IMG/VR virus record: IMGVR_UViG_3300043632_000006
Coordinates: 1-64,000 of that record
Strand: one strand, 5' to 3'
Length of the DNA stretch: 64,000 nucleotides
Source: a virus
The notes below the pieces were generated by a model, which searched no databases, was not told the origin of the DNA, and saw nothing but the letters and a program-made list of their open reading frames with translations. Position numbers and translations under genes: made by a program. Each line of letters opens with the position of its first letter. Position 1 is the first letter of the stretch. This document shows, one piece after another, positions 1,252-22,481 of the stretch.

Positions 1252-1571
1252 CCCTCTCTGCTCTTGTCGAAGCCCCAGCCGCCGATGAGCGCACCTTCTC
1301 GTCGTACGAGGTCATGGAGATGACCGGGGCCACCTACCGACAGGTCGATCACTGGAGCCGCAGGGGCTGGATCCTGGGGATGCCACTGAAGGTGGGCTGC
1401 GGCTACCAGCGTGCATGGACTCCCGAGATGGTTGAAGAGGTCCGGTGGCTGGTGAGAGCGTCGAAGGCGTTCCTGGGCCCGGCGGGAGCGTTCGGCCATC
1501 GAGCGATGCCTGACCTCCCGAAGTTGGCTGACTTCGTCCGCCGTGCCGCCGAGGCGGGGATCTTCCCGTGA
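1248..1571 (+). CDS. MerR/excisionase-type HTH DNA-binding protein, paralog 2
   Basis: 107-aa ORF, ATGA overlap with upstream gene; FSSYEVMEMTGATYRQVDHWSRRGWI. Confidence 0.7.
   Translation: MTLSALVEAPAADERTFSSYEVMEMTGATYRQVDHWSRRGWILGMPLKVGCGYQRAWTPEMVEEVRWLVRASKAFLGPAGAFGHRAMPDLPKLADFVRRAAEAGIFP
1282..1571 (+). repeat. Direct repeat copy 2 (~290 bp)
   Basis: See 395-684. Confidence 0.8.
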
Positions 1572-2377
1572 AGCCTCTCGTGATCTACCACGGCCCAACC
1601 TGCTGGGACGGGTTCTGTGCTGCATGGCTGATGCACCACTTCAGCGGGATCGACGCCGACCACCATCCCGCCCAATATGACGAACCGCCTCCGGATGTCA
1701 TCGGGCGCGAGGTCTTCGTGCTGGATTTCTCCTACCCTCGCCCAGTCCTTGAGCAGATGCATCGGGACGCCAAGTCGCTCGTCGTGCTTGACCACCACAA
1801 AACGGCGCAGGCCGCCCTTGAAGGGCTCACGTTCTGCACGTTCGACATGACTCTGTCCGGTGCCCAACTGACGTGGCGGATGCTCAAGCCGGATGTCCCA
1901 CCAGATCCGTGGCTCGTCGCCTATACGGCCGACCGGGATCTATGGGAATGGCTCCTGCCCAACTCCAAGGAGGTCAACGCCGCCCTCCGGTCCTACCCGC
2001 TGGACTTTGAGGTCTGGGATCGGCTGTGGGCTGAGGAGTCCCCCGAGACGCTGAGGCGAGACGGGACGGCAATTCTTCGGGCCGAAGAGGTCACGATCCA
2101 GGACCACGTCAACCGGGCTCGAGAGATCGAGTTCGATAGGCACAAGATCCTGTCGGTCAATGCCACCTCCCTCTTCTCCGAGATCGCAGGCAGACTGGCC
2201 GAGGGTCGTGCCTTTGGCATGGTCTGGTTCGAGAGGGACAACGGAGTACGTCAGTACAGCCTCCGCTCTCGGGGCAACGGAGTCGACGTCTCCGAGATCG
2301 CCAAGGCTCATGGTGGCGGTGGACACCAGCATGCAGCCGGTTTCGAGGTCACCGACGAGGCTGTGGCCGATTCGTGA
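1568..2377 (+). CDS. DHH/DHHA1-family phosphoesterase (NrnA/RecJ-like fold)
   Basis: 269 aa; GTGA start overlap; DHH motif in SLVVLDHHKT; DHHA1 motif GGGGHQHAAGF near C-terminus. Confidence 0.75.
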   Translation: MKPLVIYHGPTCWDGFCAAWLMHHFSGIDADHHPAQYDEPPPDVIGREVFVLDFSYPRPVLEQMHRDAKSLVVLDHHKTAQAALEGLTFCTFDMTLSGAQLTWRMLKPDVPPDPWLVAYTADRDLWEWLLPNSKEVNAALRSYPLDFEVWDRLWAEESPETLRRDGTAILRAEEVTIQDHVNRAREIEFDRHKILSVNATSLFSEIAGRLAEGRAFGMVWFERDNGVRQYSLRSRGNGVDVSEIAKAHGGGGHQHAAGFEVTDEAVADS

Positions 2378-7016: not shown

Positions 7017-7379
7017 GTGTCCATGAACTTCAAGTGGCTTCCGGGGAAGGTCGGGACGCCGGTCACCGTGACGGTTCCGGTCCCACCTTCCCCGTCGTCG
7101 GCGCCTGACGCCCCTTCGGCTCCAGATGCCCCCTCTGCGCCGAACGCTCCATCGGCCCCGACAATTACGGGAGTCGTCGTCCCGCCAGCCGTCGATACGG
7201 TGCTCCGGGGAGTGCATTCGACGTGGGAGGCCTCCCTCGCCGCCCTCCTCGTCGGTGCCCTCGCGCTCGTAGGCGTTCATCTCCCGCTAGCGGCGACGAT
7301 CATCATCACCGGGCTCCTTACCGGCGCAGCTGCGGTAGCCAGGTCGGTCCTCGCCCGGAAGACGGGGGCCAAGGCGTGA
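7017..7379 (+). CDS. Membrane protein with APDAPS repeats
   Basis: 120 aa; 18-nt tandem repeat 7101-7160 (APDAPS APDAPS APNAPS AP); two C-terminal hydrophobic helices (holin-like topology, unproven). Confidence 0.6.
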   Translation: MSMNFKWLPGKVGTPVTVTVPVPPSPSSAPDAPSAPDAPSAPNAPSAPTITGVVVPPAVDTVLRGVHSTWEASLAALLVGALALVGVHLPLAATIIITGLLTGAAAVARSVLARKTGAKA

Positions 7380-7510
7380 GGCTCGCCATGACGCTGCTCG
7401 CCCGGTTCCTGCGCTGGTGGAGGTGCATGCGGGACTGGCTCGTCTGGGGCCATACCACAGCGGACCTGCTGGCGGAACTAGACGCCTACCGACTCGGAGA
7501 GGAGCACTGA
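7376..7510 (+). CDS. Possible 44-aa protein
   Basis: GTGA overlap; alt ATG 7388. Confidence 0.3.
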   Translation: MRLAMTLLARFLRWWRCMRDWLVWGHTTADLLAELDAYRLGEEH

Positions 7511-7535
7511 CACGCTAGAGATCCTGCGCTTCGCC

Positions 7536-7847
7536 TTGGAGCACATCACCGGGCACGAGGCCCGCATCAAACGACTGGAGGAACGAATGGCAACGCTCGA
7601 AGAGGAAGAGGCTCGCCTGACCGCCGACGTAGCCGCAGCAGGCATCGACCGAGACGAACTACGTCAGCACGTGACCGCCCTGGAGGCTGCCGCCGCCGAC
7701 CCGAACGCCTCCCCGGCCGTTCAGGCCGCCGCCGCCTTCATGTCCAAGATGGCCGACACGTTGGAAGCCCAAGCCGCCCCGGCCACGCCACCACCCGCCC
7801 CACCCGCTCCAGCCCCGGCCGACGTTCTTCCACCCGCTACGCCATAG
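7536..7847 (+). CDS. Coiled-coil / Pro-Ala-rich hypothetical protein
   Basis: 103-aa ORF (non-ATG start). Confidence 0.5.
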   Translation: MEHITGHEARIKRLEERMATLEEEEARLTADVAAAGIDRDELRQHVTALEAAAADPNASPAVQAAAAFMSKMADTLEAQAAPATPPPAPPAPAPADVLPPATP

Positions 7848-7862
7848 GAAGGGAAACGGCCG

Positions 7863-9093
7863 ATGGCACAGCCCATCTGGCAGTCCCGTATCGTCGGGGA
7901 AGGCGAGGAGGATCCTGAGGCCCTCCTCGCGAACCCCTTCAACTTCCGTGTCCATCCCAAGCCTCAGCAGGCGGCGCTCAACGGTGCTCTGAACGAACTC
8001 GGCTGGATCCAGCGGGTACTGGTGAACCGCACGACCGGGCATGTCGTAGACGGGCATCTTCGGATCGAACTGGCCCTGAGCACCCATCAGCCGACCGTCC
8101 CAGTGTCCTACGTGGAGCTATCCGAGGACGAGGAGAAGCTGGCGCTCCTGACGCTCGACCCCATCGCGGCGATGGCAGCCAGCGACAGGGAGGCCTTGGA
8201 GGCGCTGCTCGCTGACGTGCGGACCGAAGACCCGGCGCTGAGCGCCATGCTGGACGATCTGGCCAAGGGGGCAGGGATCGGGCTGGGCGGGCCGCTGGAG
8301 GACGACGATGCGCCCGTAGATCAGGCCGCTGAGCTACTGGAGAAGTGGGGTGTCGTCAGGGGTCAAGTCTGGGAGGTCGGACGCCACCGGATTCTGTGCG
8401 GGGACTCCACGAGCGAACAAGATGTCAAGCTTCTGCTGGACGGTGACGAGCCTCGACTGTGTGTAACCGATCCGCCCTACGGCGTGGACTACGACCCATC
8501 ATGGCGCTCAGAGGCAGCGAAGAACGGCCACCTCGCCTACGCGGCTCGGCGCGTAGGCGAGGTGGCCAACGATGACCGATCAGACTGGACGGACACGTTC
8601 AAGCTGGCTCCGAGCAAGGTGATCTACTGTTGGGCCCCGCCGGGGCCCAACAGTTTCGAGTTCGTCAATAGCCTCGGAGCAGCGGGGTTCGAAGTCCGCA
8701 TGCAGATGATCTGGGCCAAATCCAACTTCCCGATTTCTAGGGGCCACTACCACATTCGGCATGAGCCCTGCTGGGTATGCGGTGAGGAAAGGCGAGACGG
8801 CAGCATGGATCGGTGGCCGTGACCAGACCACCCTCTGGGAGATCAACCTTGACCACAACGTGGAGGGAGGCCACTCCACCCAGAAGCCGCTGGAGTGCAT
8901 GGCCCGACCGATCCGAAACCACGAAGGCGACGTCTACGACCCCTTCCTCGGTTCAGGGACGACGCTGGTGGCCGCCGAGCAGCTAGGGCGCAGGGCCTTC
9001 GGTATGGAGATCGAGCCGAAGTACGTTGCGGTATCTCTGGAGCGTCTCGCCAACCTCGGCCTCACGCCGAAGCTTCTGACGGCAGCGCCATGA
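7863..9093 (+). pseudogene. ParB-like nuclease domain / beta-class N4-N6 DNA methyltransferase fusion, interrupted by a +1 frameshift
   Basis: ORF 7863-8822 (ParB-like NPFNFRVHP...VDGHLRIELA; motif IV CVTDPPYGV) continues in ORF 8761-9093 (motif I DPFLGSGTT). ...HEPCW | YAVRKGETAAW joins if one G of GGG 8773-8775 is removed. Confidence 0.75.
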
Positions 9094-11419: not shown

Positions 11420-11751
11420 TGACTACGGTGCAGGTTCCTCCAGCAATTACCTGCGAGAGTTGGGCCGCATGTCCCCTCAAGGGCACTCGGTACTGTTGCG
11501 GCGGCACCAAGGACGGCCCCCTGCCCGGTGCCGAAGCCGAAGTGGAACGTTACCTACATCTCCACCAAGCGTTTCAAGCTGTTGCCGAGGTGTTCCGGAA
11601 GCAGGGTGTGGACGAGGTTGGCTATGAGCCGAACAGGCGATGGACTGAGGATGCCTCCAAGGATGTGCTCCTAGCTCTGGCGCCGTTCTTGTTCCCTGGT
11701 TGCGAACAAGCAATACGGGAGTTGCGTCTCTCTGCCGAGTCCACCTCCTGA
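11419..11751 (+). CDS. Hypothetical protein (110 aa)
   Basis: TGATG-type overlaps at both ends. Confidence 0.55.
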   Translation: MTTVQVPPAITCESWAACPLKGTRYCCGGTKDGPLPGAEAEVERYLHLHQAFQAVAEVFRKQGVDEVGYEPNRRWTEDASKDVLLALAPFLFPGCEQAIRELRLSAESTS

Positions 11752-14306
11752 TGGCGAGCGACAACGCTCTTGCCGTAGCCCTCTCCCGTCCGAGCAACGC
11801 CCTCGTCTCACCGCGCCCGAACGGCCGCATCCTGACGCCTGTGGTTCGCCACCCGACGGTCATCGCCAGCGCCGCCCCGATGGCGATCAACACATCTGCG
11901 GCGATGGACCTACGGCAGACCCGGCAGGCATACCAGCACAGGGCGTGGCAGTACTTCCGCACCATCGGCATCGTCTGGTACGCAGCTGTCTTCTCCGCCA
12001 ACGCCATCTCCGGAGTCAAGATCTTCCCGGCCGAAATCGCCGGTCCCCGTCAGGCCCCGAACCCCATAGACGACGTGAACTCGCTCCAGCAGGTCGTCTT
12101 GGACGACATGGCGGAGGGATTCTCGGGTCTCGCGCTCGGCCACGGCCCCATGCTCGCCTCCCTGACGCTGCATGACCTAGTCCCCGGTGAATGCTTCTGG
12201 TACGGCACCACGGACCCCGAGACCGGCAGGAACCGCCACGAAATCCTCTCCACGGAGGAGCTAGAGCCCGGTCCCAGCGGTTTTCAGATCCGCAGGACCC
12301 CTGGCGAGCCTCCTGAGCCCATCTTGGAGAAGGGGACCCTGTTGGCGCAGATGTGGACGCCTGATCCGGTGTTCAAGAAATTCGCCACGTCTCCCATGCT
12401 CTGCCAGTCCGACACGCTTGAGCCGTTATGGCTCCTGACCCAGTCGATTATCGCGGCGGCGAAGTCCCGCCTGTGGTCGTCAAAGATCATGACCCTCCCC
12501 TCGGAGCTCGATATCGAAGGAACAATTGGCCCTGACGGAGAACCGACCAAGTTTGAGGATGAACTCCTGCAGGGCGCAAAGACAGCGATCAAGACGCCGA
12601 ATAGTCCAGCCGCCTGGTTCCCGCTCATCATCAAAGGCAAGTCGGACTACCTGAAACCCGAGTTCCTGCGGACGGTGGACCTCTTCAAGGACATGCCAAA
12701 GGAGATCCGGGACCAGATCACGGAACTTCGCTCCCAGTTTGCCCACGACTACCCCCTGCCGACGGAACTCCTGACCGGGCTGGGCGACATGACACATTGG
12801 AACGCTTGGATCGTGGACTCCATGACCTGGCCGCACCTCCGCCCCATCGTGGAGCGGATCCTGGCCAACTTGACCATGAGCGTCTACCGGACGCTGCTTA
12901 TCACGGGAGGAATGGATCCACGAGAAGTACGCCGCCAGGTGCTCTGGTACGACGAATCGCTGGTGGTCTCAAAGCCGGACCTCTCGGCAGCGGCCACAAC
13001 CGGGCTGCAGGCGGGCATTGTGGCTCCCCACGCTTGGCTCAGGGCCAATGGGTTTGACCCCGAGTCGGATTATCCGGATGAGACCGAGAGGGCGCGGATG
13101 TTCGGTGAGCGATGGGGCGACCCCGGCCTGGCCTCCGCCGGTGGGGATCCCGAAATCTGGGCCAAGGCAACAGGCCGTATCGCCACCCGAGTGACCGAAG
13201 AGGAGAAGGGCATCCCCGGAGAGGGCCCGGTCGCGGAAAACGCCCCCGAGCGCCCGACATCCGGAGCACCTGTCCCCGGTCCACCCAAGTCGGGCCCACC
13301 GGCGCCTACTGCTGCCCCGCCAGCCGTCACGCCTACCCCGGCAACTCCCGCCGTGGCTGCCTCGGGCAACGGCCACGCCCGATCGGGAACCTTCGCCGCG
13401 CGCTCGCACATGAACGGCAAGCTGGATCGCAAGCGGGCAAAGCTCAAGGCGCTCGGGCGCAGGCTGGGCGCCGTGGATCGGTCCCTCCTCCAGCGCATCT
13501 CCGTCCTGGCCGACGAGAGGCTGCATGCCGTCGTCAAGACTGCAGGCAACAAGCTCCGCTCCGCTGCCCAGGGCCGCCCCCTGCTGGCCGCCAGCATCCG
13601 AGGCGTGGAGCCGCTCTATGTCCCCCGCATGCTCGGGCCGGCCAATGCCCACCAGCTGGGGCTGGACGAAACGCTCCTGATCGACCAGGCCGCCCGCTCG
13701 TTCTCCCGGACGGCAGCGCCGTGGCTCTCCGATGCCCAGTACGCCGTTATCCAGCGCATCGCTGAGGCCACGGACCAGGATCCTGAGGAACTGGCCGCGC
13801 AGGTAGCCGATGGCGGCGCCGACTGGCTCACCGCGGCCACGGATGCCCTGACGGCAGGGTTCCTGACCGAAGCGGGCCGGTTCCTGTTCGATCCATCGTC
13901 GCCCACGGGCCCGGGCGAGATGCCTAGCCTCGTGGCCCCACGGGGTGCCATCCGGGATGCCTTGGCGCTCATGGGAGGCGGGGATCCGTCCCAGACGCCG
14001 AGCCCGGGGTTGGGTTGGGGGCCGATGGCTCAGGATGCTCTCGGCGAGGGCGGAGCAGCGGTGGACGGCTGGACGTGGGTCTACACAGACCTGGCGCGTA
14101 CCACCTTTCCGGGGCATCTGATGCTGGACGGAATCGAGTTCACCTCGTGGGATGACGACCAGTTGGCTACGCAGCCTGAGGACTCATGGATCGGGGATTT
14201 CGCGTATCCGGGGGACCATGACGGCTGCGCCTGCCTAGTGGAACCACTGGTGACTTCGCTTGATGGTGCTGACCTCTCTGGGGACCTGATCGGAGCCGAA
14301 GCGTGA
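11751..14306 (+). CDS. Portal protein fused to MuF-like head morphogenesis domain
   Basis: 851 aa from ATG 11751; position after terminase; Pro-rich linker; C-terminal ...TTFPGHLMLDGIEFTSW...FAYPGDHDGCACLVEPL resembles SPP1 gp7/Mu F family ends. Confidence 0.7.
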   Translation: MASDNALAVALSRPSNALVSPRPNGRILTPVVRHPTVIASAAPMAINTSAAMDLRQTRQAYQHRAWQYFRTIGIVWYAAVFSANAISGVKIFPAEIAGPRQAPNPIDDVNSLQQVVLDDMAEGFSGLALGHGPMLASLTLHDLVPGECFWYGTTDPETGRNRHEILSTEELEPGPSGFQIRRTPGEPPEPILEKGTLLAQMWTPDPVFKKFATSPMLCQSDTLEPLWLLTQSIIAAAKSRLWSSKIMTLPSELDIEGTIGPDGEPTKFEDELLQGAKTAIKTPNSPAAWFPLIIKGKSDYLKPEFLRTVDLFKDMPKEIRDQITELRSQFAHDYPLPTELLTGLGDMTHWNAWIVDSMTWPHLRPIVERILANLTMSVYRTLLITGGMDPREVRRQVLWYDESLVVSKPDLSAAATTGLQAGIVAPHAWLRANGFDPESDYPDETERARMFGERWGDPGLASAGGDPEIWAKATGRIATRVTEEEKGIPGEGPVAENAPERPTSGAPVPGPPKSGPPAPTAAPPAVTPTPATPAVAASGNGHARSGTFAARSHMNGKLDRKRAKLKALGRRLGAVDRSLLQRISVLADERLHAVVKTAGNKLRSAAQGRPLLAASIRGVEPLYVPRMLGPANAHQLGLDETLLIDQAARSFSRTAAPWLSDAQYAVIQRIAEATDQDPEELAAQVADGGADWLTAATDALTAGFLTEAGRFLFDPSSPTGPGEMPSLVAPRGAIRDALALMGGGDPSQTPSPGLGWGPMAQDALGEGGAAVDGWTWVYTDLARTTFPGHLMLDGIEFTSWDDDQLATQPEDSWIGDFAYPGDHDGCACLVEPLVTSLDGADLSGDLIGAEA

Positions 14307-14833
14307 GCCAAACCGAACCTCGCACCTACCGGGCCCCAGGTGATCCTCCCCTCCTCTGTGCCTTCTGCCGGATCGTTCACGGCGAACACGCTGAGGGTGA
14401 CCCAGTCCCCTTGGTCGTCGGAGACTTTCCCCACGCGCTGGCGTTCGTCCCACTCGCTCCCGCTGCTTGGGGCCATACGCTGGTCATCCCAAAGCGCCAT
14501 GTTGAGTCACTAGGGGAACTCCGCCCTGGCTACTTAGTAGAGGCGGTGCTGACGGCAGTGCAGAGGATGGATGCGCGGCTTCGGGGAGCGCTCAACCCTG
14601 ACGGCATGAACCTCATCCAGTCCACAGGAGCGGCAGCAGGCCAGACCGTGCCTCATCTCCATTTCCACCTCGTGCCCCGCTGGGACGACGACCACCTTGG
14701 CGACCTGTGGGCTAAGGGTCGGGAGCGGTGGAATGGCTACCGAGGCAATGAGACCTGGGATCAGCGGCGGGCACGTATGGCTGAGGCGCTCAAAACTGCT
14801 GACCCTGAGTCCCTACGTGGAGTCGAAGCGTGA
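14303..14833 (+). CDS. HIT-family (histidine triad) nucleotide hydrolase/transferase
   Basis: 176 aa; histidine triad TVPHLHFHLVPRWDDD; GTGA overlap with portal gene. Confidence 0.8.
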   Translation: MSQTEPRTYRAPGDPPLLCAFCRIVHGEHAEGDPVPLVVGDFPHALAFVPLAPAAWGHTLVIPKRHVESLGELRPGYLVEAVLTAVQRMDARLRGALNPDGMNLIQSTGAAAGQTVPHLHFHLVPRWDDDHLGDLWAKGRERWNGYRGNETWDQRRARMAEALKTADPESLRGVEA

Positions 14834-15291: not shown

Positions 15292-15701
15292 GCCGCCTCG
15301 ACGCCATCCGGGAGGCGCGCACCTTCGAGGAGCTGTACGCCCTCATTCCGTCCCCACGAGGCTGCACCAGGCAATGCGCCGCCTCCTGTGGTCCCATAGG
15401 CTTCTCTACCGAGGAGGGACGCCGCTTGGATGCCGCAGGCTGCCACATCCCGAACATCCACGAACGGGACATCCTGGCTGTGGAGACCTGTCCGGCGCTG
15501 GTCGACGGGCGCTGCTCTGTGTACGAATCAAGGCCCACGCTCTGCCGGGTCTGGGGGGCATGCGAGCCTATGCCGTGCCCGTACCTCGGGTGCTCGGTTC
15601 TCGACCCGCTGACCACGGAGGAGACCGAGGCGGTGTCGTGGCGAGCCTTCGAGTTGGGCGGCATGCCGGGAGTCATTGAGTGGGGAGGGGTGCTGCGGTG
15701 A
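15288..15701 (+). CDS. YkgJ/UPF0153-type Cys-cluster (zinc/iron-chelating) protein
   Basis: 137 aa; CTRQCAASCGP ... CPALVDGRCSVYESRPTLCRVW. Confidence 0.55.
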   Translation: MSRLDAIREARTFEELYALIPSPRGCTRQCAASCGPIGFSTEEGRRLDAAGCHIPNIHERDILAVETCPALVDGRCSVYESRPTLCRVWGACEPMPCPYLGCSVLDPLTTEETEAVSWRAFELGGMPGVIEWGGVLR

Positions 15702-16123
15702 ACCTCGTCGTGCCGCCGATCCGCAATCAGGATCAGGAGACGCCCGAGCGGGCCCGGGTTGGTCCCTACTACCTCTGCTGGGAGAAGGACGAGCACGGGA
15801 CCGCGTGCGATATGCGAGCGGGTCATTATGGCGACCACACCTGGCAGTTACGGGCCGAGAGGGGTACTGCGATGAGCGACGTGCAGAAACCCGTCCTGAC
15901 GGAGCTTGAGACCCGATTCACCTATCACCCTCCCCAGTCGTGGCAGATCCCCTTCTACGAGGAGATGCGGGTCCGAGGGTTCACCCTTGCCGAGTGGATC
16001 GACCAGCGCCTACCCGACTGCCGTGAGAAGTCCCTTGCTCTGACCAGCATCGAACAGGCCATCATGTGGGCCAACGCGGGCATGGCTCGCCGCGGCACGA
16101 AACCGGAGGAGGATCACCCATGA
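15698..16123 (+). CDS. Hypothetical protein (alt start ATG 15872)
   Basis: GTGA overlap; C-terminal TYHPP...REKSLALTSIEQAIMWANAGMAR looks like a conserved phage family I cannot name. Confidence 0.55.
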   Translation: MNLVVPPIRNQDQETPERARVGPYYLCWEKDEHGTACDMRAGHYGDHTWQLRAERGTAMSDVQKPVLTELETRFTYHPPQSWQIPFYEEMRVRGFTLAEWIDQRLPDCREKSLALTSIEQAIMWANAGMARRGTKPEEDHP

Positions 16124-18354
16124 CAACGAAGACCCGGCGTCCCCCGAAGGCTGGCGAAGGTAGGAGCCTGGTTGACCTTGACGCCCTCGCCAAGACGCTG
16201 ACGGCTGCCACGCCTCCGCCCGAAGCACCGCCAGAGCCAGCCCCAACTGACGCTCCCGCCGATCCGATGCCTACCTCGGGTATGGTCTGCCTGCTGCTGG
16301 ACGACGACACGGCTACGGCGCTACAGACTGCCTTCCCGCCACCGGAGGGAGCGTCGATACCCGTGCCGCCACACATCACCTTGGCATTTCTCGGGCCGGT
16401 CGATGCGCTGGACCGCCCGACCGTGGAAGCCGCCATCAACGCCGCCCTCAGCGCGGCCGACACGGAAGAGGACACGGAAGAAGGCGGCGAGGGTTCACCG
16501 GGCGACACCGACACCGTTACGGGTGTGTTCGGCGGCTGGGGACGCTTCGCTGCCGAGTCGGACGACAACGGGAACGAGGGAGGCAACCTGACGCCCATCG
16601 TGGCCCTGTTCGACTCCCCCGACCTTGACGAGATCCAGGCAGCACTTGAGGACGCCCTGGAAGATGCCGGGATGCCCGAGCCCACCCACGGCTTCACAGC
16701 CCACTCCACGCTCTGCCGGGTGGCGCTGGGGGATACCGACACCATTGCGTTCCCGGCTCCCCCGATGCTTGAGGCGACCTTCTCGGAGGTGGCGCTCGTC
16801 TGGGGCGACTACACGGATCCTGCCAATATCACGATGTTCCCCATCGCCGGAGCAGAGGCTCCTGCGCCCGAGGCCGTGCCCGCTGAGCCAGCGCCGGCGA
16901 TGGGACTGGCTACCGACGTCCCGCCCGACGCGCCGAGCGCCGAGCCGATGCCCGAGGATGAGGAGCGCACCATTCCCGTTCCGGGCCCGCTGGGCATGTT
17001 CGAGGCGTGCCTCGTCACGGAGGGCGTCCCGACCGACGAGGTGTTTCCTATCGGTGACCAGACCGAGGTGCGAGGGCGCTTCATCCCAGACGGGGTGGCG
17101 AAGTGGCGTACCCCTCCCCTTCCCGGCGGCTTCGCTATGGACGCGATGGGCAACCCCGCCGACAACGGGCACGACAAGGCTCCCATCGCCTGCTCCGCTC
17201 TCGAGATCGTCCGGGAGGGCAGCAGGATCATGGCCCGCGGCCCCTATCTGGACAATGTCGCCGGCGCCGCGCTCAAGGCAGCCGTGGACGGCGGGGCACC
17301 GATCGGGCCCTCCATCGCCTTCGTGGGCGACGTCTGGGATATCACCGTGGATGCTGAGGGCAAGGCGCAGCAGACGCTCTTGGAGGGCACCATCGACGGC
17401 TTCGTAGTTCTGCCCTACGAGGCGATGCATTCCACGGAGGACGGAGAGTGGCTGACGTGGTTCCGCTCCGCCCCCGACACCGCCCTGACACCGCCGGAGG
17501 CCATGCCCGAAGAGATGCCCGCGCTGGTGCCTGTCGCTGCCTCAGCGGTCGTCGCCTGCGGAGCCGGATCGTTCGGCGCCCCGCTGTACCCGCCTCGCTC
17601 GTGGCTCGAGAAGCCGCCTCCGGGCGACGGCGAGATCGTCCCGTTCACGGTCACCGACGAGGGTCAGGTCTTTGGACACGCCTCGGGCGGGACGTGCCAC
17701 ATCGGCATCCCGGGGACCTGCCTACGGGTGTCAAACGACATGCTCGACCGAGACTTCCGGGTATTCCACAAGGGGCTCGACGGCAAGGGGCAGGGGATCA
17801 AGACGGCCGAGGGCGACTTCGTCAAGGTCGGCCAGATCACCCTTGCTGGAGGCCACGCCGACACGGCTCTCGGAGCGGCAGCGGCCCGCAAGCACTACGA
17901 CGACACGGATTCGGTGATCGGCAACGTCCACATCGAATGGGACCCCAAGGCCGACGATGGTGCTGGTGCGCCGTGGATGGCGGGGGCGATCCAGCACACG
18001 GCGACCGAGGGCCAGGTACAGCAGATGCGGGCGGCCGGGGAAGTCTCGGTGGACTACCGGCAGCTGGAGGACGGCAGGCTGCACCTCATCGCCCTGCCCG
18101 TCGTCCCCCGTGGTGGCTTCCCCCCACTGCGCGCCCTGTCGGCCGGCGGCGAGCTCAAGACTCTGATCCTGACCGCGGCTGGGGAGGCCGAGACGCCGGA
18201 GGCTCCGAGCGACGCCTCGACGCCGAGTGCCGCGGACGGTCTCATCCTGGAGATCGGGAGGGATCTCTATCTCCGCAAGTTCGGGGAGGAAGCAGCGTTG
18301 CTGGCCTCAGCGCATCAGGCAGAGAAGGAGCGGCTAGCGACGCTGGTGCGGTAG
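16120..18354 (+). CDS. LigT-like 2H phosphoesterase domain fused to capsid maturation protease
   Basis: 744 aa from ATG 16120 (ATGA overlap); two HxT motifs PHITLAFLG and FTAHSTLCRV within aa ~55-245. The rest (..GHADTALGAAAARKHYDDT..SVDYRQ..) resembles actinophage prohead proteases and sits between portal and capsid genes. Confidence 0.65.
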   Translation: MTTKTRRPPKAGEGRSLVDLDALAKTLTAATPPPEAPPEPAPTDAPADPMPTSGMVCLLLDDDTATALQTAFPPPEGASIPVPPHITLAFLGPVDALDRPTVEAAINAALSAADTEEDTEEGGEGSPGDTDTVTGVFGGWGRFAAESDDNGNEGGNLTPIVALFDSPDLDEIQAALEDALEDAGMPEPTHGFTAHSTLCRVALGDTDTIAFPAPPMLEATFSEVALVWGDYTDPANITMFPIAGAEAPAPEAVPAEPAPAMGLATDVPPDAPSAEPMPEDEERTIPVPGPLGMFEACLVTEGVPTDEVFPIGDQTEVRGRFIPDGVAKWRTPPLPGGFAMDAMGNPADNGHDKAPIACSALEIVREGSRIMARGPYLDNVAGAALKAAVDGGAPIGPSIAFVGDVWDITVDAEGKAQQTLLEGTIDGFVVLPYEAMHSTEDGEWLTWFRSAPDTALTPPEAMPEEMPALVPVAASAVVACGAGSFGAPLYPPRSWLEKPPPGDGEIVPFTVTDEGQVFGHASGGTCHIGIPGTCLRVSNDMLDRDFRVFHKGLDGKGQGIKTAEGDFVKVGQITLAGGHADTALGAAAARKHYDDTDSVIGNVHIEWDPKADDGAGAPWMAGAIQHTATEGQVQQMRAAGEVSVDYRQLEDGRLHLIALPVVPRGGFPPLRALSAGGELKTLILTAAGEAETPEAPSDASTPSAADGLILEIGRDLYLRKFGEEAALLASAHQAEKERLATLVR

Positions 18355-18756
18355 AGGAAGAGCGACCACAGTCACCGGGCCGTAGTTGCCCGCGATCTTG
18401 GTCCACGATTCGGGATCGTCTTTGCCGTCCAACCGCCCCCAACTGAGTTCCCATCGCCGCCAGAGGTTCCCCATGCAGGACACGACGCTCCCGATGGGGG
18501 GCTGCGGATCTTGGGCCGTGAGGGTACGGCCGACGAGTTCCATACCGGGGCTAATCGCGGCAACCGACCTGTCGGGCACATCGCTGACTGCTCCGTGGAC
18601 GGCGTTCCAGTGGTCGATGCCCGCCTGCTTGGCCGCGGCCATTTGATCCACGTTCCACTCGGACTCTTGCGACCAATCGCATCCTGGTTCTTGGCAGTAG
18701 TACGTAGGGGAGTCGTAGTAGTCGATGGCATCCTCAGCGCGTGCGAACTTAGTCAC
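18334..18756 (-). CDS. Island gene 7, hypothetical (140 aa)
   Basis: GTG start overlapping upstream stop by 8 nt; converges on and overlaps the protease gene end by 21 nt. Confidence 0.6.
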   Translation of the reverse strand: MTKFARAEDAIDYYDSPTYYCQEPGCDWSQESEWNVDQMAAAKQAGIDHWNAVHGAVSDVPDRSVAAISPGMELVGRTLTAQDPQPPIGSVVSCMGNLWRRWELSWGRLDGKDDPESWTKIAGNYGPVTVVALPLPHQRR

Positions 18757-18928
18757 CGACGGGACCTTCTACCCAACACCCACGCTCTGGATCCGGATCA
18801 GGAATGTGGTAGAGGTTCGGATGGACGGGCTCCCCGCAATATTCGCAAACATACTTAGCGCGCTTACCATCAGGGAAGACGAAGTCCGGAGGGTCCTCGG
18901 TTCTATCTTCCTCCACGGGTTCGCTCAT
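18749..18928 (-). CDS. Island gene 6, 59-aa protein with CxxC
   Basis: MSEPVEEDRTEDPPDFVFPDGKRAKYVCEYCGEPVHP...; ATGA overlap with upstream gene. Confidence 0.45.
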   Translation of the reverse strand: MSEPVEEDRTEDPPDFVFPDGKRAKYVCEYCGEPVHPNLYHIPDPDPERGCWVEGPVGD

Positions 18929-19170
18929 GGCCGCGCCTTCACGGACAGGGGCTCAAAGGTCAGAGTCCACATACCGTCATCGTGCTTCTGCCAAGTGCCG
19001 CCCTTCATCAGGTGCCCGCACGGTTCCAACTCTAGATAGTCGAATCTAGGGAGGGCGACCAAGATTTTCATCGGGTGCGGCTCGAATCTGGAACGGCTTG
19101 GTACCACTCGCTTCACTTCCGAATGGCAGGAGGGACAGGTAGTACCGAGAGGTGGCCTGAATGGGTTCAT
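18925..19170 (-). CDS. Island gene 5, 81-aa zinc-ribbon-like protein
   Basis: MNPFRPPLGTTCPSCHSEV...EPCGH; C-terminal part of track ORF 18925-19812; ATGA overlap with upstream stop. Confidence 0.5.
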   Translation of the reverse strand: MNPFRPPLGTTCPSCHSEVKRVVPSRSRFEPHPMKILVALPRFDYLELEPCGHLMKGGTWQKHDDGMWTLTFEPLSVKARP

Positions 19171-19553
19171 GGCCGTGCCTTCACTGCCGCACACACGTCC
19201 GCAAGATGCCCCCATGCCGACGTCACACGCTGCATCTGATCCGGTGTGGCTCCCAGGGGCGGGGAGACTGCCGCTGCCGCTCCGTAGGCGTCCCGAACGT
19301 AGGGCGAGGCGGAGTTGAAGGCTACCGCCCCCACCGCGGGATCCTGCCAGTCCCCTGACGCCCCGAGAGGCCCCCGGGACACATGGGCGCAGACCTCGCG
19401 GTCCGCTTCGGCGCTGCTGAGCGAGGACGATGCGTTGTTTGCCGGTGGGTGCGCTCTGCCCCACAACGCTCCTAAGCCGAGCCCGAGAACGAGGGTGGCG
19501 ACGGGAACCAGGATGGTGACGAGAAAGCGGGAGCGGGTCACCATTGCCTCCAC
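19167..19553 (-). CDS. Island gene 4, secreted or membrane-anchored protein
   Basis: 128 aa; N-terminal RSRFLVTILVPVATLVLGLGLGALWG signal/anchor. Confidence 0.6.
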   Translation of the reverse strand: MEAMVTRSRFLVTILVPVATLVLGLGLGALWGRAHPPANNASSSLSSAEADREVCAHVSRGPLGASGDWQDPAVGAVAFNSASPYVRDAYGAAAAVSPPLGATPDQMQRVTSAWGHLADVCAAVKARP

Positions 19554-19870
19554 TCGGCCACGTCAGCATCGGAGACCATGACAACCCGAATCTCGGCCAC
19601 TCGTTCCCCCAGGCCGTGATCAGGTCCGTAGTCCACGATTCGTCCCCACACTTCGTATCCACCATCGCCAAGGCCCGGATGGAACCACACTCCGCCTTGC
19701 GACCAAGGAGCACCGTGAGATCCCTCCGGGATGGGCTGGCAGTCAGTCGGAAAAGGTTCGCACGCCAGGTACGTCGGATCCACAAGCCCCATCGACGCTC
19801 CATCCACACCAACCTCGCCCAGTAGCTCCCATCTCTCGGAGATGCCCTTCGCTGGTTCGGGACGGTTCAC
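19538..19870 (-). CDS. Island gene 3, DUF4241-like small protein
   Basis: 110 aa; GVDGASMGLVDP...HPGLGDGGYEVWGRIVDYG resembles the GDGxY core of DUF4241; tentative. Confidence 0.45.
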   Translation of the reverse strand: MNRPEPAKGISERWELLGEVGVDGASMGLVDPTYLACEPFPTDCQPIPEGSHGAPWSQGGVWFHPGLGDGGYEVWGRIVDYGPDHGLGERVAEIRVVMVSDADVAEWRQW

Positions 19871-20223
19871 GATGTCTCCTCGCCTGTCAGCACCTTGACG
19901 GCGTAGTCGCCATCATCGGTGATCTCCACCATCGCCTGTGACCGTGTCCGCTGCCGCTCCTCGGGTGTCAACTCCCAGCGGTAACGCAGGAGGCCAGCCT
20001 CCACCAGTCTGTCGATGTAGGCGTACCGGCTGCCGACGCTGACCGTGCCGCGCTGACCGCCGTAGGCCCACGCTGTGACATCGCCTCGTGGCACGCAACG
20101 CTCCCGGGCCATGCGGATCAGGTAGTCGGCTCCGGTGCTGCCCACCCGGACCAGCCGACCATCGGGGAGCCGGACGTCCGTGTGGGGCATGGAGAGGCCG
20201 GTGGTGTCGTGAACGGGGATCAT
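19867..20223 (-). CDS. Island gene 2, possible winged-helix protein
   Basis: 118 aa from ATG 20223 (track start 20229 GTG); YIDRLVEAGLLRYRWELTPEE. Confidence 0.55.
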   Translation of the reverse strand: MIPVHDTTGLSMPHTDVRLPDGRLVRVGSTGADYLIRMARERCVPRGDVTAWAYGGQRGTVSVGSRYAYIDRLVEAGLLRYRWELTPEERQRTRSQAMVEITDDGDYAVKVLTGEETS

Positions 20224-20393
20224 CACCACACCCCGTTTGCGTCACCGTTGTACGCGGCGTCCTGGCACTCGTCACAGGTCCCCCACCGATTCTCGACTGG
20301 GTTCCCGCAAGCGCACTTTGCCTTCGGCTTGCGATCAGCAGGAACCTTGGTGATCCCTGCAAGTACGTCTCGTGGGCTTAGTGTCTTCTTCAT
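20223..20393 (-). CDS. Island gene 1, 56-aa zinc-ribbon-like protein
   Basis: MKKTLSPRDV...KCACGNPVENRWGTCDECQ; RBS gggggaacgaa before ATG 20393. Confidence 0.5.
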   Translation of the reverse strand: MKKTLSPRDVLAGITKVPADRKPKAKCACGNPVENRWGTCDECQDAAYNGDANGVW

Positions 20394-20543: not shown

Positions 20544-22481
20544 GTGGCGAGGGCGTCTGTGAGGCGTCCGGCAAGCGAAGCACCTGGGAGCCCGAATGGC
20601 CCCGGAGACCTTGTCGGCGCGCTACGAAAGGCCCTCCCCGTGCAAGTCCCCCGAGCGGCCTCCTTAGGTCGTTTCCAGTTCCCCCCCGGCACCTTCCCCC
20701 TCTGGCGACCGTTCCAGGTCGTCTTCGCCCCACCGGACGACACCGGCACCACGACACAGCCCCTCATCCCCGAAGACCTCACCGCCCTCGACGCCAAGAC
20801 GCTGGCGAAGACCGAGGCGGACCTCCTCAAGCGTGGCAACCGCCTCAAGGACCAGGCCGCATCCGGAGAGACGGTCGCCGAGCTCCGGGAAGTGGTCGAC
20901 GCGCTCGGCAAGGTCCGGACCGAAGTCACCCGCCGTGCTGACGAGTCGGCACAGCACGAGGCCGAGAAGCAGGAGCTGCTCTCCGCTCTCGAGCCCGTTG
21001 CCCCCGCAGCAGAAACCGATCCCAATGCCCCCGAAGAAGAGGAACCGCCTGCCGAACCCGAGCCGGAGAAAAAGCCGGAGGCCCCGACCGTCGAAGCCAT
21101 CGCCGCTGCCGCCGAGCCCCGGGAGCCCATCCGCACCCGTCCCCGTGCCCCCTCCGTGGCCAACATCCCCTCCAGTGCCGTGCGGCCCGAGTCCCGCCCG
21201 AACCTCGCCCCTGCCCAGCCCCAGGTGACCCTCACCGCCGGCGGCGACATCCCGGGCTTCTCGGCGGGCATGCCGATTGAGGAGCGGGACATCGGCAAGG
21301 CATTCGCTGAGAAGGCCCATGCCCTCCAGTTGAACGGACATGGGTCAGGCTCCGTCATGTCGATGCAGGTCAAGTATCCGGAGGACCGCCAGCTGTCCCC
21401 CAAGGACACAGCCGCATCCGTTGAGGAACGGGTGACCGCCGTCACGGCCTCCGCGGCCCGCACCCGCGGGCTGACCGTCAACCAGGGCACCCCGAAGGCT
21501 CTGGTGGCTGCTGGTGGGCTCTGTGCCCCCGCGGCGGTGGACTACTCGTTCATGTCGCTCGGAACCATGCGCCGGCCTGTCCGGGACGCTCTGGTTCGCT
21601 TCGGCGCCGAGCGGGGTGCGATCCGTTTCATCACCCCTGCCCACCTCTCGGATGTGGCCCCAGGCTCCTCCCTGTGGACCAATGCGACCGACGCAGCGTG
21701 GCAGCCGGGTATGCCCACCAAGCCGTTCCTCACGATCACCTGTGGTGCCGAGATTCTCGTCAAGGTTGACGCGCTCGTGCTGGCGATCGTCGTCGGCAAC
21801 TTCGACCGTATGACCTTCCCCGAGCACTTCGCCGACTGGTGGGAGAAGGCGCAAATCTACTTCGCTCGGTACGCCGACTCCCGCCTTCTGTCCCTGATCT
21901 CAGCCTCCTGCACCGCCACCACCACGGCTCAGGATCTCGGCTTCGCCCGGGATTACCTCGTCCACATCGGCACCGCAGCCGACGGCTACCGGGACCGGAA
22001 CCGCATGGAGGACGACGAGATCGTGCAGATCCTCGCCCCCCACTGGGTGAAGGGCGCCATGCGGAGAGACTTCACCAGGCAGGAACCCGGTGACGAGGCC
22101 GTGCAGCAAGCCGATGCGGAGATCGCCGGTTACTTGGCCGCCGACCACATCGAGCCGACGTGGTACCTCGACACGCCCTCGACCGGCGTCAACCAGAACT
22201 TCACCGTCCAGGGGGTCGGACCCTTGGAGGGCTATCCGGCCAAGGCGCAGACCTTCATGTTCTCCCCAGGATCCTTCCTCCACCTCGATGGCGGGGAACT
22301 CAACCTCGGGACAGAGATCCGCGACTGGACGCTTGACCGCCAAAACCAGGTTGCAGGATTCGTGGAGACACTGGAAGGGGTCGCGTTCAAGGGTATTGAG
22401 GCGCTCAGGGTTGATATCTCAGTCTGCCCGAATGGCTGGACGTCGGCGCCACAAACGCTGGCTGCCTGCGGGGGTTCCTGA
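20544..22481 (+). CDS. Major capsid protein with long N-terminal scaffold/delta-like domain
   Basis: 645 aa; coiled-coil and acidic N-terminal ~230 aa, then ..ALVAAGGLCAPAAVDY..RRPVRDALVRFGAERGAIRF.. and C-terminal ..NQVAGFVETLEGVAFKG.., which I recognise from actinophage capsid proteins; start uncertain. Confidence 0.6.
   Translation: MARASVRRPASEAPGSPNGPGDLVGALRKALPVQVPRAASLGRFQFPPGTFPLWRPFQVVFAPPDDTGTTTQPLIPEDLTALDAKTLAKTEADLLKRGNRLKDQAASGETVAELREVVDALGKVRTEVTRRADESAQHEAEKQELLSALEPVAPAAETDPNAPEEEEPPAEPEPEKKPEAPTVEAIAAAAEPREPIRTRPRAPSVANIPSSAVRPESRPNLAPAQPQVTLTAGGDIPGFSAGMPIEERDIGKAFAEKAHALQLNGHGSGSVMSMQVKYPEDRQLSPKDTAASVEERVTAVTASAARTRGLTVNQGTPKALVAAGGLCAPAAVDYSFMSLGTMRRPVRDALVRFGAERGAIRFITPAHLSDVAPGSSLWTNATDAAWQPGMPTKPFLTITCGAEILVKVDALVLAIVVGNFDRMTFPEHFADWWEKAQIYFARYADSRLLSLISASCTATTTAQDLGFARDYLVHIGTAADGYRDRNRMEDDEIVQILAPHWVKGAMRRDFTRQEPGDEAVQQADAEIAGYLAADHIEPTWYLDTPSTGVNQNFTVQGVGPLEGYPAKAQTFMFSPGSFLHLDGGELNLGTEIRDWTLDRQNQVAGFVETLEGVAFKGIEALRVDISVCPNGWTSAPQTLAACGGS

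Follow-up and report, generated by a model that had tools for sequence, protein, structure and literature searches.

A LigT-like 2H phosphoesterase fused to a prohead protease: a candidate head-packaged enzyme against signaling defenses

Why would a virus join a phosphoesterase to the protease that matures its own capsid? The question is raised by an open reading frame (ORF) of 744 amino acids (aa) at positions 16120–18354, plus strand, of the 64,000-nucleotide (nt) stretch of DNA analyzed here, which we call the window and which comprises positions 1 to 64,000 of IMG/VR virus record IMGVR_UViG_3300043632_000006. The ORF and the alignment of its relatives give, from the N terminus onward, a 2H phosphoesterase, a linker, two protease-family domains and a C-terminal helix, and we regard the assignment of the 2H and prohead protease domains as close to certain. 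Our proposal is that the product is a head-assembly polyprotein in which a protease carrier bears an intact 2H enzyme as cargo, which is packaged and blunts signaling defenses; we consider the chances of this reading to be even. The reading frame is uninterrupted, with a ribosome-binding site (GGAGGAGGA) about 8 nt 5' of its ATG, and a GTG at 16066 offers an alternative start that would extend the protein to 762 aa.

The two halves of the protein

The 2H domain occupies aa ~53–242 (16276–16845) and is identified by Pfam, by its homologues and by structure comparison of an AlphaFold model. In a Pfam scan, the window protein matches PF13563 (2_5_RNA_ligase2) at 29.4 bits against a gathering threshold (GA) of 27 (E 9.4e-7) and PF02834 (LigT_PEase) at 24.8 bits against a cut-off of 23.3, and 11 of 14 homologues also match PF13563. 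The model of aa 45–247 has a predicted local distance difference test score (pLDDT) of 79.7 and a predicted template modeling score of 0.78, and its top 50 Foldseek matches in the PDB are exclusively 2H-superfamily proteins. The best of these is Escherichia coli LigT/ThpR (5ldm, E 3e-7), followed by Thermus TT0787 and a Deinococcus cyclic phosphodiesterase (CPDase); Usb1 and AKAP18 rank behind them, and viral enzymes stand lower in the list, namely mouse hepatitis virus ns2, Acb1 (E 1.6e-3), rotavirus VP3 and the poxvirus cyclic GMP–AMP (cGAMP) phosphodiesterase.

A first-pass annotation, made from the sequence alone, had read this region as a LigT-like domain with two HxT motifs separated by an acidic insert, and each of these elements is borne out. 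The first catalytic motif, H85-I-T87 (16372–16380), lies inside PHITLAFLG (aa 84–92), and the second, H195-S-T197 (16702–16710), inside FTAHSTLCRV (aa 192–201); all four catalytic residues are invariant in the family alignments (A4, A6, A7). Between the two halves of the domain lies the insert (aa ~112–160, 16453–16599), with 14 aspartate or glutamate residues within aa 109–165 and poor order in the model (pLDDT below 50 at model residues 76–84 and 105–110); it is shortened or absent in two relatives, P0013 and P0081. Ahead of the domain is a basic, proline-rich leader (aa 1–52, 16120–16275) that is gapped and poorly conserved in the family and has low pLDDT at the start of the model, and that is probably disordered.

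Conservation of the catalytic residues reaches well beyond close relatives. Among 30 protease-fused 2H domains (26 cluster representatives and 4 isolates), both histidines are kept in every one and each threonine in 29, in domains that share just 22–45% identity with each other. Judged from these alignments, the chemistry of the fused domain is under selection, and the 2H domain of the window is apparently catalytically intact.

Which 2H enzyme the domain resembles most is a separate matter. Its sole NCBIfam match is TIGR02258, the RNA 2',3'-cyclic phosphodiesterase model, at 25.1 bits against a cut-off of 65.7; because this is far under the equivalog cut-off, the domain is a superfamily relative of LigT/ThpR and not an orthologue. 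The first-pass annotation had also drawn a link to Acb1, a link that did not survive as one of family. The window protein has no match to the Pfam Acb1 profile (PF23474) at E ≤ 0.1, and in Foldseek Acb1 (7t27) falls well behind LigT. Among relatives, 1 of 14 matches the profile at E 0.077, and Orf10 of phage GMA2 does so at 7.9e-4, below the cut-off. We therefore reject membership of the Acb1 family; the label "Acb1-like" can refer only to how the enzyme may act.

Between the two halves of the protein runs a flexible linker rich in proline, alanine and glutamate (aa 243–285, 16846–16974), delimited by the alignment and by the disordered start of the second model. It contains the motif PAMGLATD (aa 259–266, nt 16894–16917), which 10 close relatives share, two of them devoid of the 2H core, and which occurs only once in the six-frame translation of the window. 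We infer that it is a candidate site of processing and cleavage, or of docking.

The remainder of the protein had been taken for an actinophage prohead protease, and several comparisons agree with that assignment. When the window protein was searched by tblastn against 50,697 phage records, only aa 488–683 matched, in 62 phage records; the matches are genes of Microbacterium, Gordonia and Arthrobacter phages whose annotation reads capsid or head maturation protease. A model of aa 262–744 (pLDDT 79.9) contains two well-folded domains, at aa ~291–451, which is beta-rich, and at aa ~483–664, followed by a disordered stretch and a 40-residue C-terminal helix. Foldseek places this model, with the matched domain unspecified, near T4 gp21 in the PDB (5jbl, E 4e-4, probability 0.99) and then near herpesvirus proteases. 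Its matches in BFVD include actinophage capsid maturation proteases (E 2e-25) and, again with the matched domain unspecified, many HK97-family prohead protease or COG3740 entries (E 1e-8 to 1e-4).

The first of the two domains, an HK97-type (S78-like) prohead protease core at aa ~286–451 (16975–17472), is supported by the model, by its relatives and by hhalign. We collected 696 representative relatives of this core, and across 68 diverse ones an arginine, a histidine, a glycine and a serine are invariant, with H351 (17170–17172) and S398 (17311–17313) as the candidate catalytic residues. The Pfam family Peptidase_S78 (PF04586) is matched by 4 of the 68 (best E 7.8e-4), and hhalign aligns the core profile with HK97 gp4 at E 4.5e-4 and a probability of 33%, setting S398 on the serine of the gp4 motif GMSVGF. 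The domain thus appears to be a canonical S78-like core. Pfam and NCBIfam scans of both protease-region domains of the window protein at E ≤ 10 returned no protease family, and a hidden Markov model search of PDB sequences with the two domain profiles returned nothing useful.

The second conserved domain (aa 488–690, 17581–18189) is defined by tblastn, by annotations, by its homologues and by a match to phrog_18402, "head maturation protease". It occurs mostly as a stand-alone protein of 250–370 aa, called a capsid or head maturation protease in many actinophages (61 homologues), and H579, H592, Y593, S643, D645 and R647 are invariant over 78 sequences. Profile comparison with HK97 gp4 gave motif-level colinearity that is not significant. 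Each domain has its own invariant histidine and serine residues (H351 and S398; H579, H592 and S643), in a gp4-like motif order in both. These motifs suggest a tandem pair or duplication; comparison of the two domains by hhalign was at first negative and, with deeper profiles, reached an E of 0.02, which is not significant. The protein may hold two candidate active sites, H351/S398 and H579/H592/S643, and one or both domains may cleave.

The protein ends in a long amphipathic helix (aa 704–743, 18229–18348; model residues 443–482), and the C-terminal motif AADGL..L..D.Y.R..GE.A..LASAH is conserved in all full-length relatives. By analogy with HK97 gp4, the helix may be a capsid-targeting or scaffold-contacting tail; Duda, Oh and Hendrix in 2013 reportedly found that the C-terminal region of gp4 targets both gp4 and heterologous fusions into proheads.

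Distribution of the fusion

Is the joining of the two halves a stable feature of these viruses? We found 15 metagenomic homologues, one of which (P0001) is an identical 690-aa gene call on a 98,873-nt Joint Genome Institute contig. The homologue alignment (A1) is colinear from the 2H domain through the linker and the two protease-region domains to the C-terminal helix, and at least 12 metagenomic homologues keep the fusion. A frameshift or assembly artefact was considered and rejected, since cultured phages and at least 12 independent homologues share this colinearity. In many of the homologues (P0002, P0003, P0005–P0007 and P0010–P0015), a further module of ~110 aa follows the 2H domain or precedes the C-terminal helix (A1 columns ~340–460 and ~960–1100), in the sequence forms WDGSASRF...CFLPHHEPDGTINRNGVHAAAQRV and ADLPIAPRDTSWDASGASKRLAALC...; no Pfam family matches this module, and it is missing from the window protein.

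The 2H domain is the movable part of the arrangement. Two close homologues, P0008 and P0012, have lost the 2H core with both HxT motifs, while their leader, PAMGLATD motif and protease remain, and they offer a natural control without the cargo. Among 147 representatives with the S78-like core, the second domain is present in 126 and a 2H domain in 26 (18%), leaving 121 with no 2H domain; where it is present, it lies N-terminal to the protease core in 25 of the 26, as in the window protein. Because the core was deleted in P0008 and P0012 and because only 26 of the 147 core proteins carry one, the 2H domain reads, from sequence comparison, as accessory cargo on a conserved protease chassis, dispensable for the protease module. 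Other partners occur on the same chassis. A Pfam scan of 68 core representatives (P0083–P0150) found 2_5_RNA_ligase2 in 13, MuF in 13, a ferritin-like domain in 3, AAA in 2 and NUDIX in 1, as well as DUF5925, zinc ribbons and a portal domain, which suggests that the chassis is a general cargo carrier. A stronger version of this idea, in which the actinophage maturation protease serves as a general loader whose cargo (2H, NUDIX, ferritin-like, AAA or MuF) is loaded, self-released, retained and injected with the DNA, seems to us doubtful.

The first-pass annotation knew of no description of this architecture. In fact, the 2H–protease architecture is already present in databases, where it is common (26 of the 147 clusters, cultured phages and PHROG 18402), and the concept of a 2H head effector was published in 2017. 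Streptomyces phage Maih gp11 (1192 aa) comprises a MuF domain at 115–241, a 2H domain at 272–433, an S78-like core at 463–605 and the second domain at 900–1127; its 2H domain is unannotated in GenBank. In the Gordonia phage proteins RoadKill gp15 (960 aa) and Tangent gp14 (878 aa), labeled "RNA ligase" and "head maturation protease", respectively, a domain of the second type (~17–228) precedes a 2H domain (~414–568), and PHROG 18402 spans this whole two-part architecture; Tardus is a further cultured example. A related 2H domain lies at the C terminus of GMA2 Orf10, a large head protein whose gene follows the portal gene, and homologues of that domain occur in 287 phage records (Gordonia 171, Mycobacterium 95, Streptomyces 16, Rhodococcus 4). 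The 2H domains of these cultured phages are colinear with that of the window, with both HxT motifs kept at 22–29% identity. Labels for these head proteins in GenBank records (KU189325, MK977704, NC_055779, NC_070761, NC_048165, NC_029005) are inconsistent, ranging over "RNA ligase", "head maturation protease", "capsid maturation protease and MuF-like fusion protein", "portal protein", "putative structural protein" and "hypothetical protein".

What the window adds is a variant of the locus in which the 2H domain sits directly on the protease, in a polypeptide without MuF. Iyer et al. (2017, J Bacteriol, PMC5512222) reported fusions of 2H domains with MuF or portal proteins, never linked to RNA ligases, and predicted that the fused enzymes are packaged and injected to act as RNases or to degrade 2'-5' oligoadenylate or cyclic-nucleotide signals; the 2H section of that paper makes no mention of protease fusions. 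The 2H–protease protein is a permutation of these predicted MuF–2H and portal–2H head-effector fusions. Our literature search found no paper that mentions a protease–2H fusion and none that tests any such protein. The first-pass annotation had named, as one refuting case, that similar fusions prove both common and already characterized as scaffolding-only domains; they are common, and we found no published characterization, as scaffolding or otherwise. The window phage itself is not close to any isolate, because a megablast search of its 10.8-kb head region against the 50,697 phage records gave no match and a tblastn search of the phage collection with the 2H domain alone gave none even at E = 10; a wide protein search with the 2H profile added just three sequences.

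Gene neighborhood and possible roles

The 2H–protease gene lies between a portal gene and a capsid gene, a layout shared by its relatives. The portal ORF (868 aa, 11700–14306, plus strand) matches phrog_776 over aa 48–614 (E 4.9e-58), and the major capsid protein (20544–22481, plus strand) matches phrog_777, major head protein, over aa 75–642 (E 9.4e-65). An earlier description of the gene as sitting between a portal–MuF gene and the capsid gene is right as to the portal and the capsid, with the qualification that the genes are not adjacent; the MuF part stands at motif level only. The C terminus of the portal protein (aa ~800–860) has the MuF-like pattern W..V...P.H...DG...YPGD...C.CL..P, with a BLASTP match to MuF at E 0.25, and the portal ORF has no Pfam match, so that a portal–MuF fusion of the kind reported in Microbacterium cluster EA phages (PMC7302621) is unconfirmed here. 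In the capsid ORF, whose start codon is uncertain, ~230 N-terminal residues with coiled-coil and proline/glutamate-rich character precede the HK97-like part, and this delta-like or scaffold-like region is the expected substrate of the protease. Three minus-strand ORFs of 140, 110 and 120 aa (18334–20229), with no Pfam or family match, break the plus-strand head operon between the protease and capsid genes; a comparable minus-strand pair occupies the same place in two related loci, L008 and L009.

Four or five plus-strand ORFs separate the portal gene from the 2H–protease gene. Directly after the portal gene is a HIT-family nucleotide hydrolase or transferase (14303–14833, plus strand; PF01230 E 1.8e-20; 44 HIT proteins in the PDB, best E 7e-19), 1.3 kb upstream of the 2H–protease; another small ORF has a weak CxxCxxCC match. 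Immediately before the 2H–protease, a short ORF (15680–16123, plus strand) encodes an Acb2/Tad1 hairpin domain, matching PF24729 at E 6.9e-16 and 58.6 bits, above the GA of 27, and phrog_1454; its stop overlaps the 2H–protease start codon (ATGA), and its true start may be an internal ATG near 15872. Its best PDB sequence match, "Acb2 homolog 43", reaches only E 0.85. The small protein may serve as a cyclic-nucleotide sponge within the head module. Farther away, a DHH/DHHA1 phosphoesterase gene (1568–2377, plus strand; DHHA1 29.9 bits, above the GA of 25.9) may be another nucleotide-degrading accessory gene. A DHHA1-like gene (7066–7878 in the related locus L010; 24.7 bits, just under the GA) also lies immediately upstream of the homologous 2H–protease there.

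It is plausible that these neighbors, the Acb2/Tad1-like, HIT and DHH/DHHA1 genes, point to nucleotide chemistry. We considered whether the HIT, Acb2-like and 2H genes form a conserved island and rejected the idea, as the upstream genes differ in L008, L009 and L010. Since HIT and Acb2-like genes were not found at this position in those three loci, the region upstream of the 2H–protease is a variable accessory slot, not a fixed operon, and the recurrence of nucleotide-acting genes beside the 2H–protease is suggestive only.

How might such a protein work? The protease module and the C-terminal helix would bring the whole protein into the procapsid, as in HK97 gp4. The protease would then trim the scaffold-like N-terminal region of the capsid protein and cut the linker, freeing a ~22-kDa 2H domain inside the shell. 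That enzyme could stay in the head and be ejected into the next host together with the DNA; alternatively, it could act in the cytoplasm before assembly. Its substrate would be a nucleotide with a 2',3'-cyclic phosphate or an immune second messenger with 2'-5' or 3'-5' linkages, and its hydrolysis would blunt a signaling defense. Loading into the procapsid is plausible in view of the recurrence of 2H domains on MuF, portal and protease proteins, all of them internal to the procapsid. The same 2H subfamily is found on MuF (GMA2 Orf10), on MuF plus protease (Maih gp11) and on the protease-type domain (RoadKill gp15 and Tangent gp14), and also under portal annotations, with varied domain orders. 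There is precedent, too, in that targeting sequences can load heterologous proteins into heads (PMC9024508) and that a virion ejection protein blocks the cyclic-oligonucleotide-based antiphage signaling system (CBASS), as described in a preprint (10.1101/2025.07.23.666291). We lean modestly toward encapsidation of the 2H–protease protein, while an immune nucleotide signal as the target of its 2H domain is a possibility that we rate somewhat below an even chance.

Several observations weigh against a packaged anti-signaling enzyme. In fold, the domain stands closer to the cellular LigT/ThpR enzymes and CPDases, whose substrates are RNA 2',3'-cyclic ends; Acb1 is more distant, and its Pfam profile is not matched by the window protein. 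The absence of HIT and Acb2-like genes from the corresponding position in the related loci means that the neighborhood may be incidental. A ligase or kinase partner may be encoded elsewhere, as the window is 64 kb of a 98.9-kb contig. Finally, the HK97 protease digests itself and its fragments leave the shell, so that a fused domain might likewise be destroyed or lost.

The main rival is an RNA-end or RNase role, and the second is action confined to the cytoplasm. An enzyme directed at RNA, packaged or not, would heal tRNA or mRNA that host anticodon nucleases, HEPN RNases or toxins have cut, working as a 2',3'-cyclic phosphodiesterase, or would trim host RNAs as a Usb1-like RNase; we think this unlikely, if by no means negligible. 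It would fit the order of the structural matches, with LigT/ThpR, the Thermus and Deinococcus enzymes and then Usb1 at the top, and the identity of the only NCBIfam model that matches the domain, although the score for that model lies far under its cut-off. Annotators in the SEA-PHAGES program call relatives "RNA ligase", and an RNase is one of the two options in Iyer et al. (2017); the same study found the head-protein versions never associated with RNA ligases (PMC5512222), and a partial scan of the window ORFs found no RNA ligase or polynucleotide kinase. The neighboring Acb2/Tad1-like, HIT and DHH/DHHA1 genes, for their part, indicate small nucleotides and not RNA repair.

The fusion might also secure nothing more than late, high and stoichiometric expression of an enzyme whose site of action is the cytoplasm of the producing cell, where its targets might be, for instance, signals triggered by capsid assembly, and that is cut or degraded at maturation and never delivered. 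The known anti-signaling proteins Acb1, Acb2 and Tad1 need not be virion components, and the Acb2/Tad1-like protein of this late operon is encoded on its own, with no fusion partner; the self-digestion and exit of HK97-type proteases would have the same outcome, and the long flexible linker with its conserved motif could be the release site. We find this explanation rather improbable: a fusion is unnecessary where an adjacent gene would suffice, and the recurrence of 2H domains on internal head components (portal, MuF and protease) in various orders argues that localization is selected (PMC5512222). Much the least credible alternative, and in our view very improbable, is that the 2H fold is non-catalytic and acts as a scaffold, a spacer or a protease-regulating pro-domain. 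The large, acidic and disordered insert would suit such a part, and in actinophages a protease or capsid protein often has a scaffolding function fused to it (PMC7302621), but the nearly perfect retention of the catalytic histidines and threonines in otherwise divergent domains speaks against it, and the deletions in P0008 and P0012, together with the many protease relatives that never had a 2H domain, indicate that the domain is not needed for assembly.

What would follow if the enzyme is indeed packaged and directed at immune signals? The phage enzymes and sponges known to counter the signals of CBASS, Pycsar, Thoeris and type III CRISPR systems are made after infection and must race the host signal, and we know of no phage for which a pre-made, injected phosphodiesterase against immune signals has been demonstrated. 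A capsid-borne phosphodiesterase would remove that delay, destroying cyclic-oligonucleotide or 2'-5'-linked signals before any phage gene is expressed, and the list of injected counter-defenses would grow from anti-restriction factors to anti-signaling enzymes. The hypothesis is testable, because phages with this fusion that infect Streptomyces, Gordonia and Mycobacterium hosts are in culture and open to genetic manipulation. Specialists would be only partly surprised, given the 2017 prediction and the hundreds of database examples, and the result would be important if true. Whatever the role, inconsistent labels in GenBank and PHROGs hide a widespread two-part architecture.

Comparison with known systems

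The closest conceptual relatives are the MuF–2H and portal–2H fusions of Iyer et al. (PMC5512222). They share with the window protein a 2H domain with both HxT motifs on a head-internal protein of the late head module and the lack of a link to RNA ligases, and both that work and ours are computational only. They differ in the carrier, which in the window is a capsid maturation protease in an ORF without a MuF or portal domain. The proteins of Maih, RoadKill, Tangent and Tardus, like the window protein, combine 2H and protease-family domains in one polypeptide encoded between the portal or MuF and capsid genes. Maih gp11 has the same order of 2H domain, S78-like core and C-terminal domain and adds an N-terminal MuF, whereas in the Gordonia proteins the C-terminal-type domain comes first, the 2H domain is central, no S78-like core is detectable and long extra C-terminal regions follow.

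As an enzyme, the 2H domain compares best with LigT/ThpR and CPDases (PDB 5ldm, 1iuh, 5h7e and 1vdx; E 3e-7 to 6e-5, TM-score up to 0.68 on the target), with which it shares the two HxT motifs and Pfam matches above cut-off for both PF13563 and PF02834. It differs from them in its low identity (16–20%), its acidic insert and its fusion to a virion-assembly protein. Acb1 (7t26 and 7t27), coronavirus ns2, rotavirus VP3 and the poxvirus cGAMP phosphodiesterase have the same 2H fold (Foldseek E 7e-4 to 3e-3) and are viral enzymes that destroy nucleotide immune signals, to which the window domain is a weaker match than to LigT. Rotavirus VP3 offers a further parallel, as it belongs to the virion core and bears a fused 2H domain at its C terminus.

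On the side of head assembly, the window protein shares with HK97 gp4 and T4 gp21 the protease fold, a His/Ser pair, a C-terminal tail and a gene position between portal and capsid, along with a capsid protein that has a scaffold-like N-terminal region; it differs in having two tandem conserved domains and no direct match to Pfam S78. Packaged cargo is familiar from the T4 internal proteins and Alt and from P1 DarB, in which a short targeting peptide is cleaved by the protease, whereas in the window protein cargo and protease form a single polypeptide.

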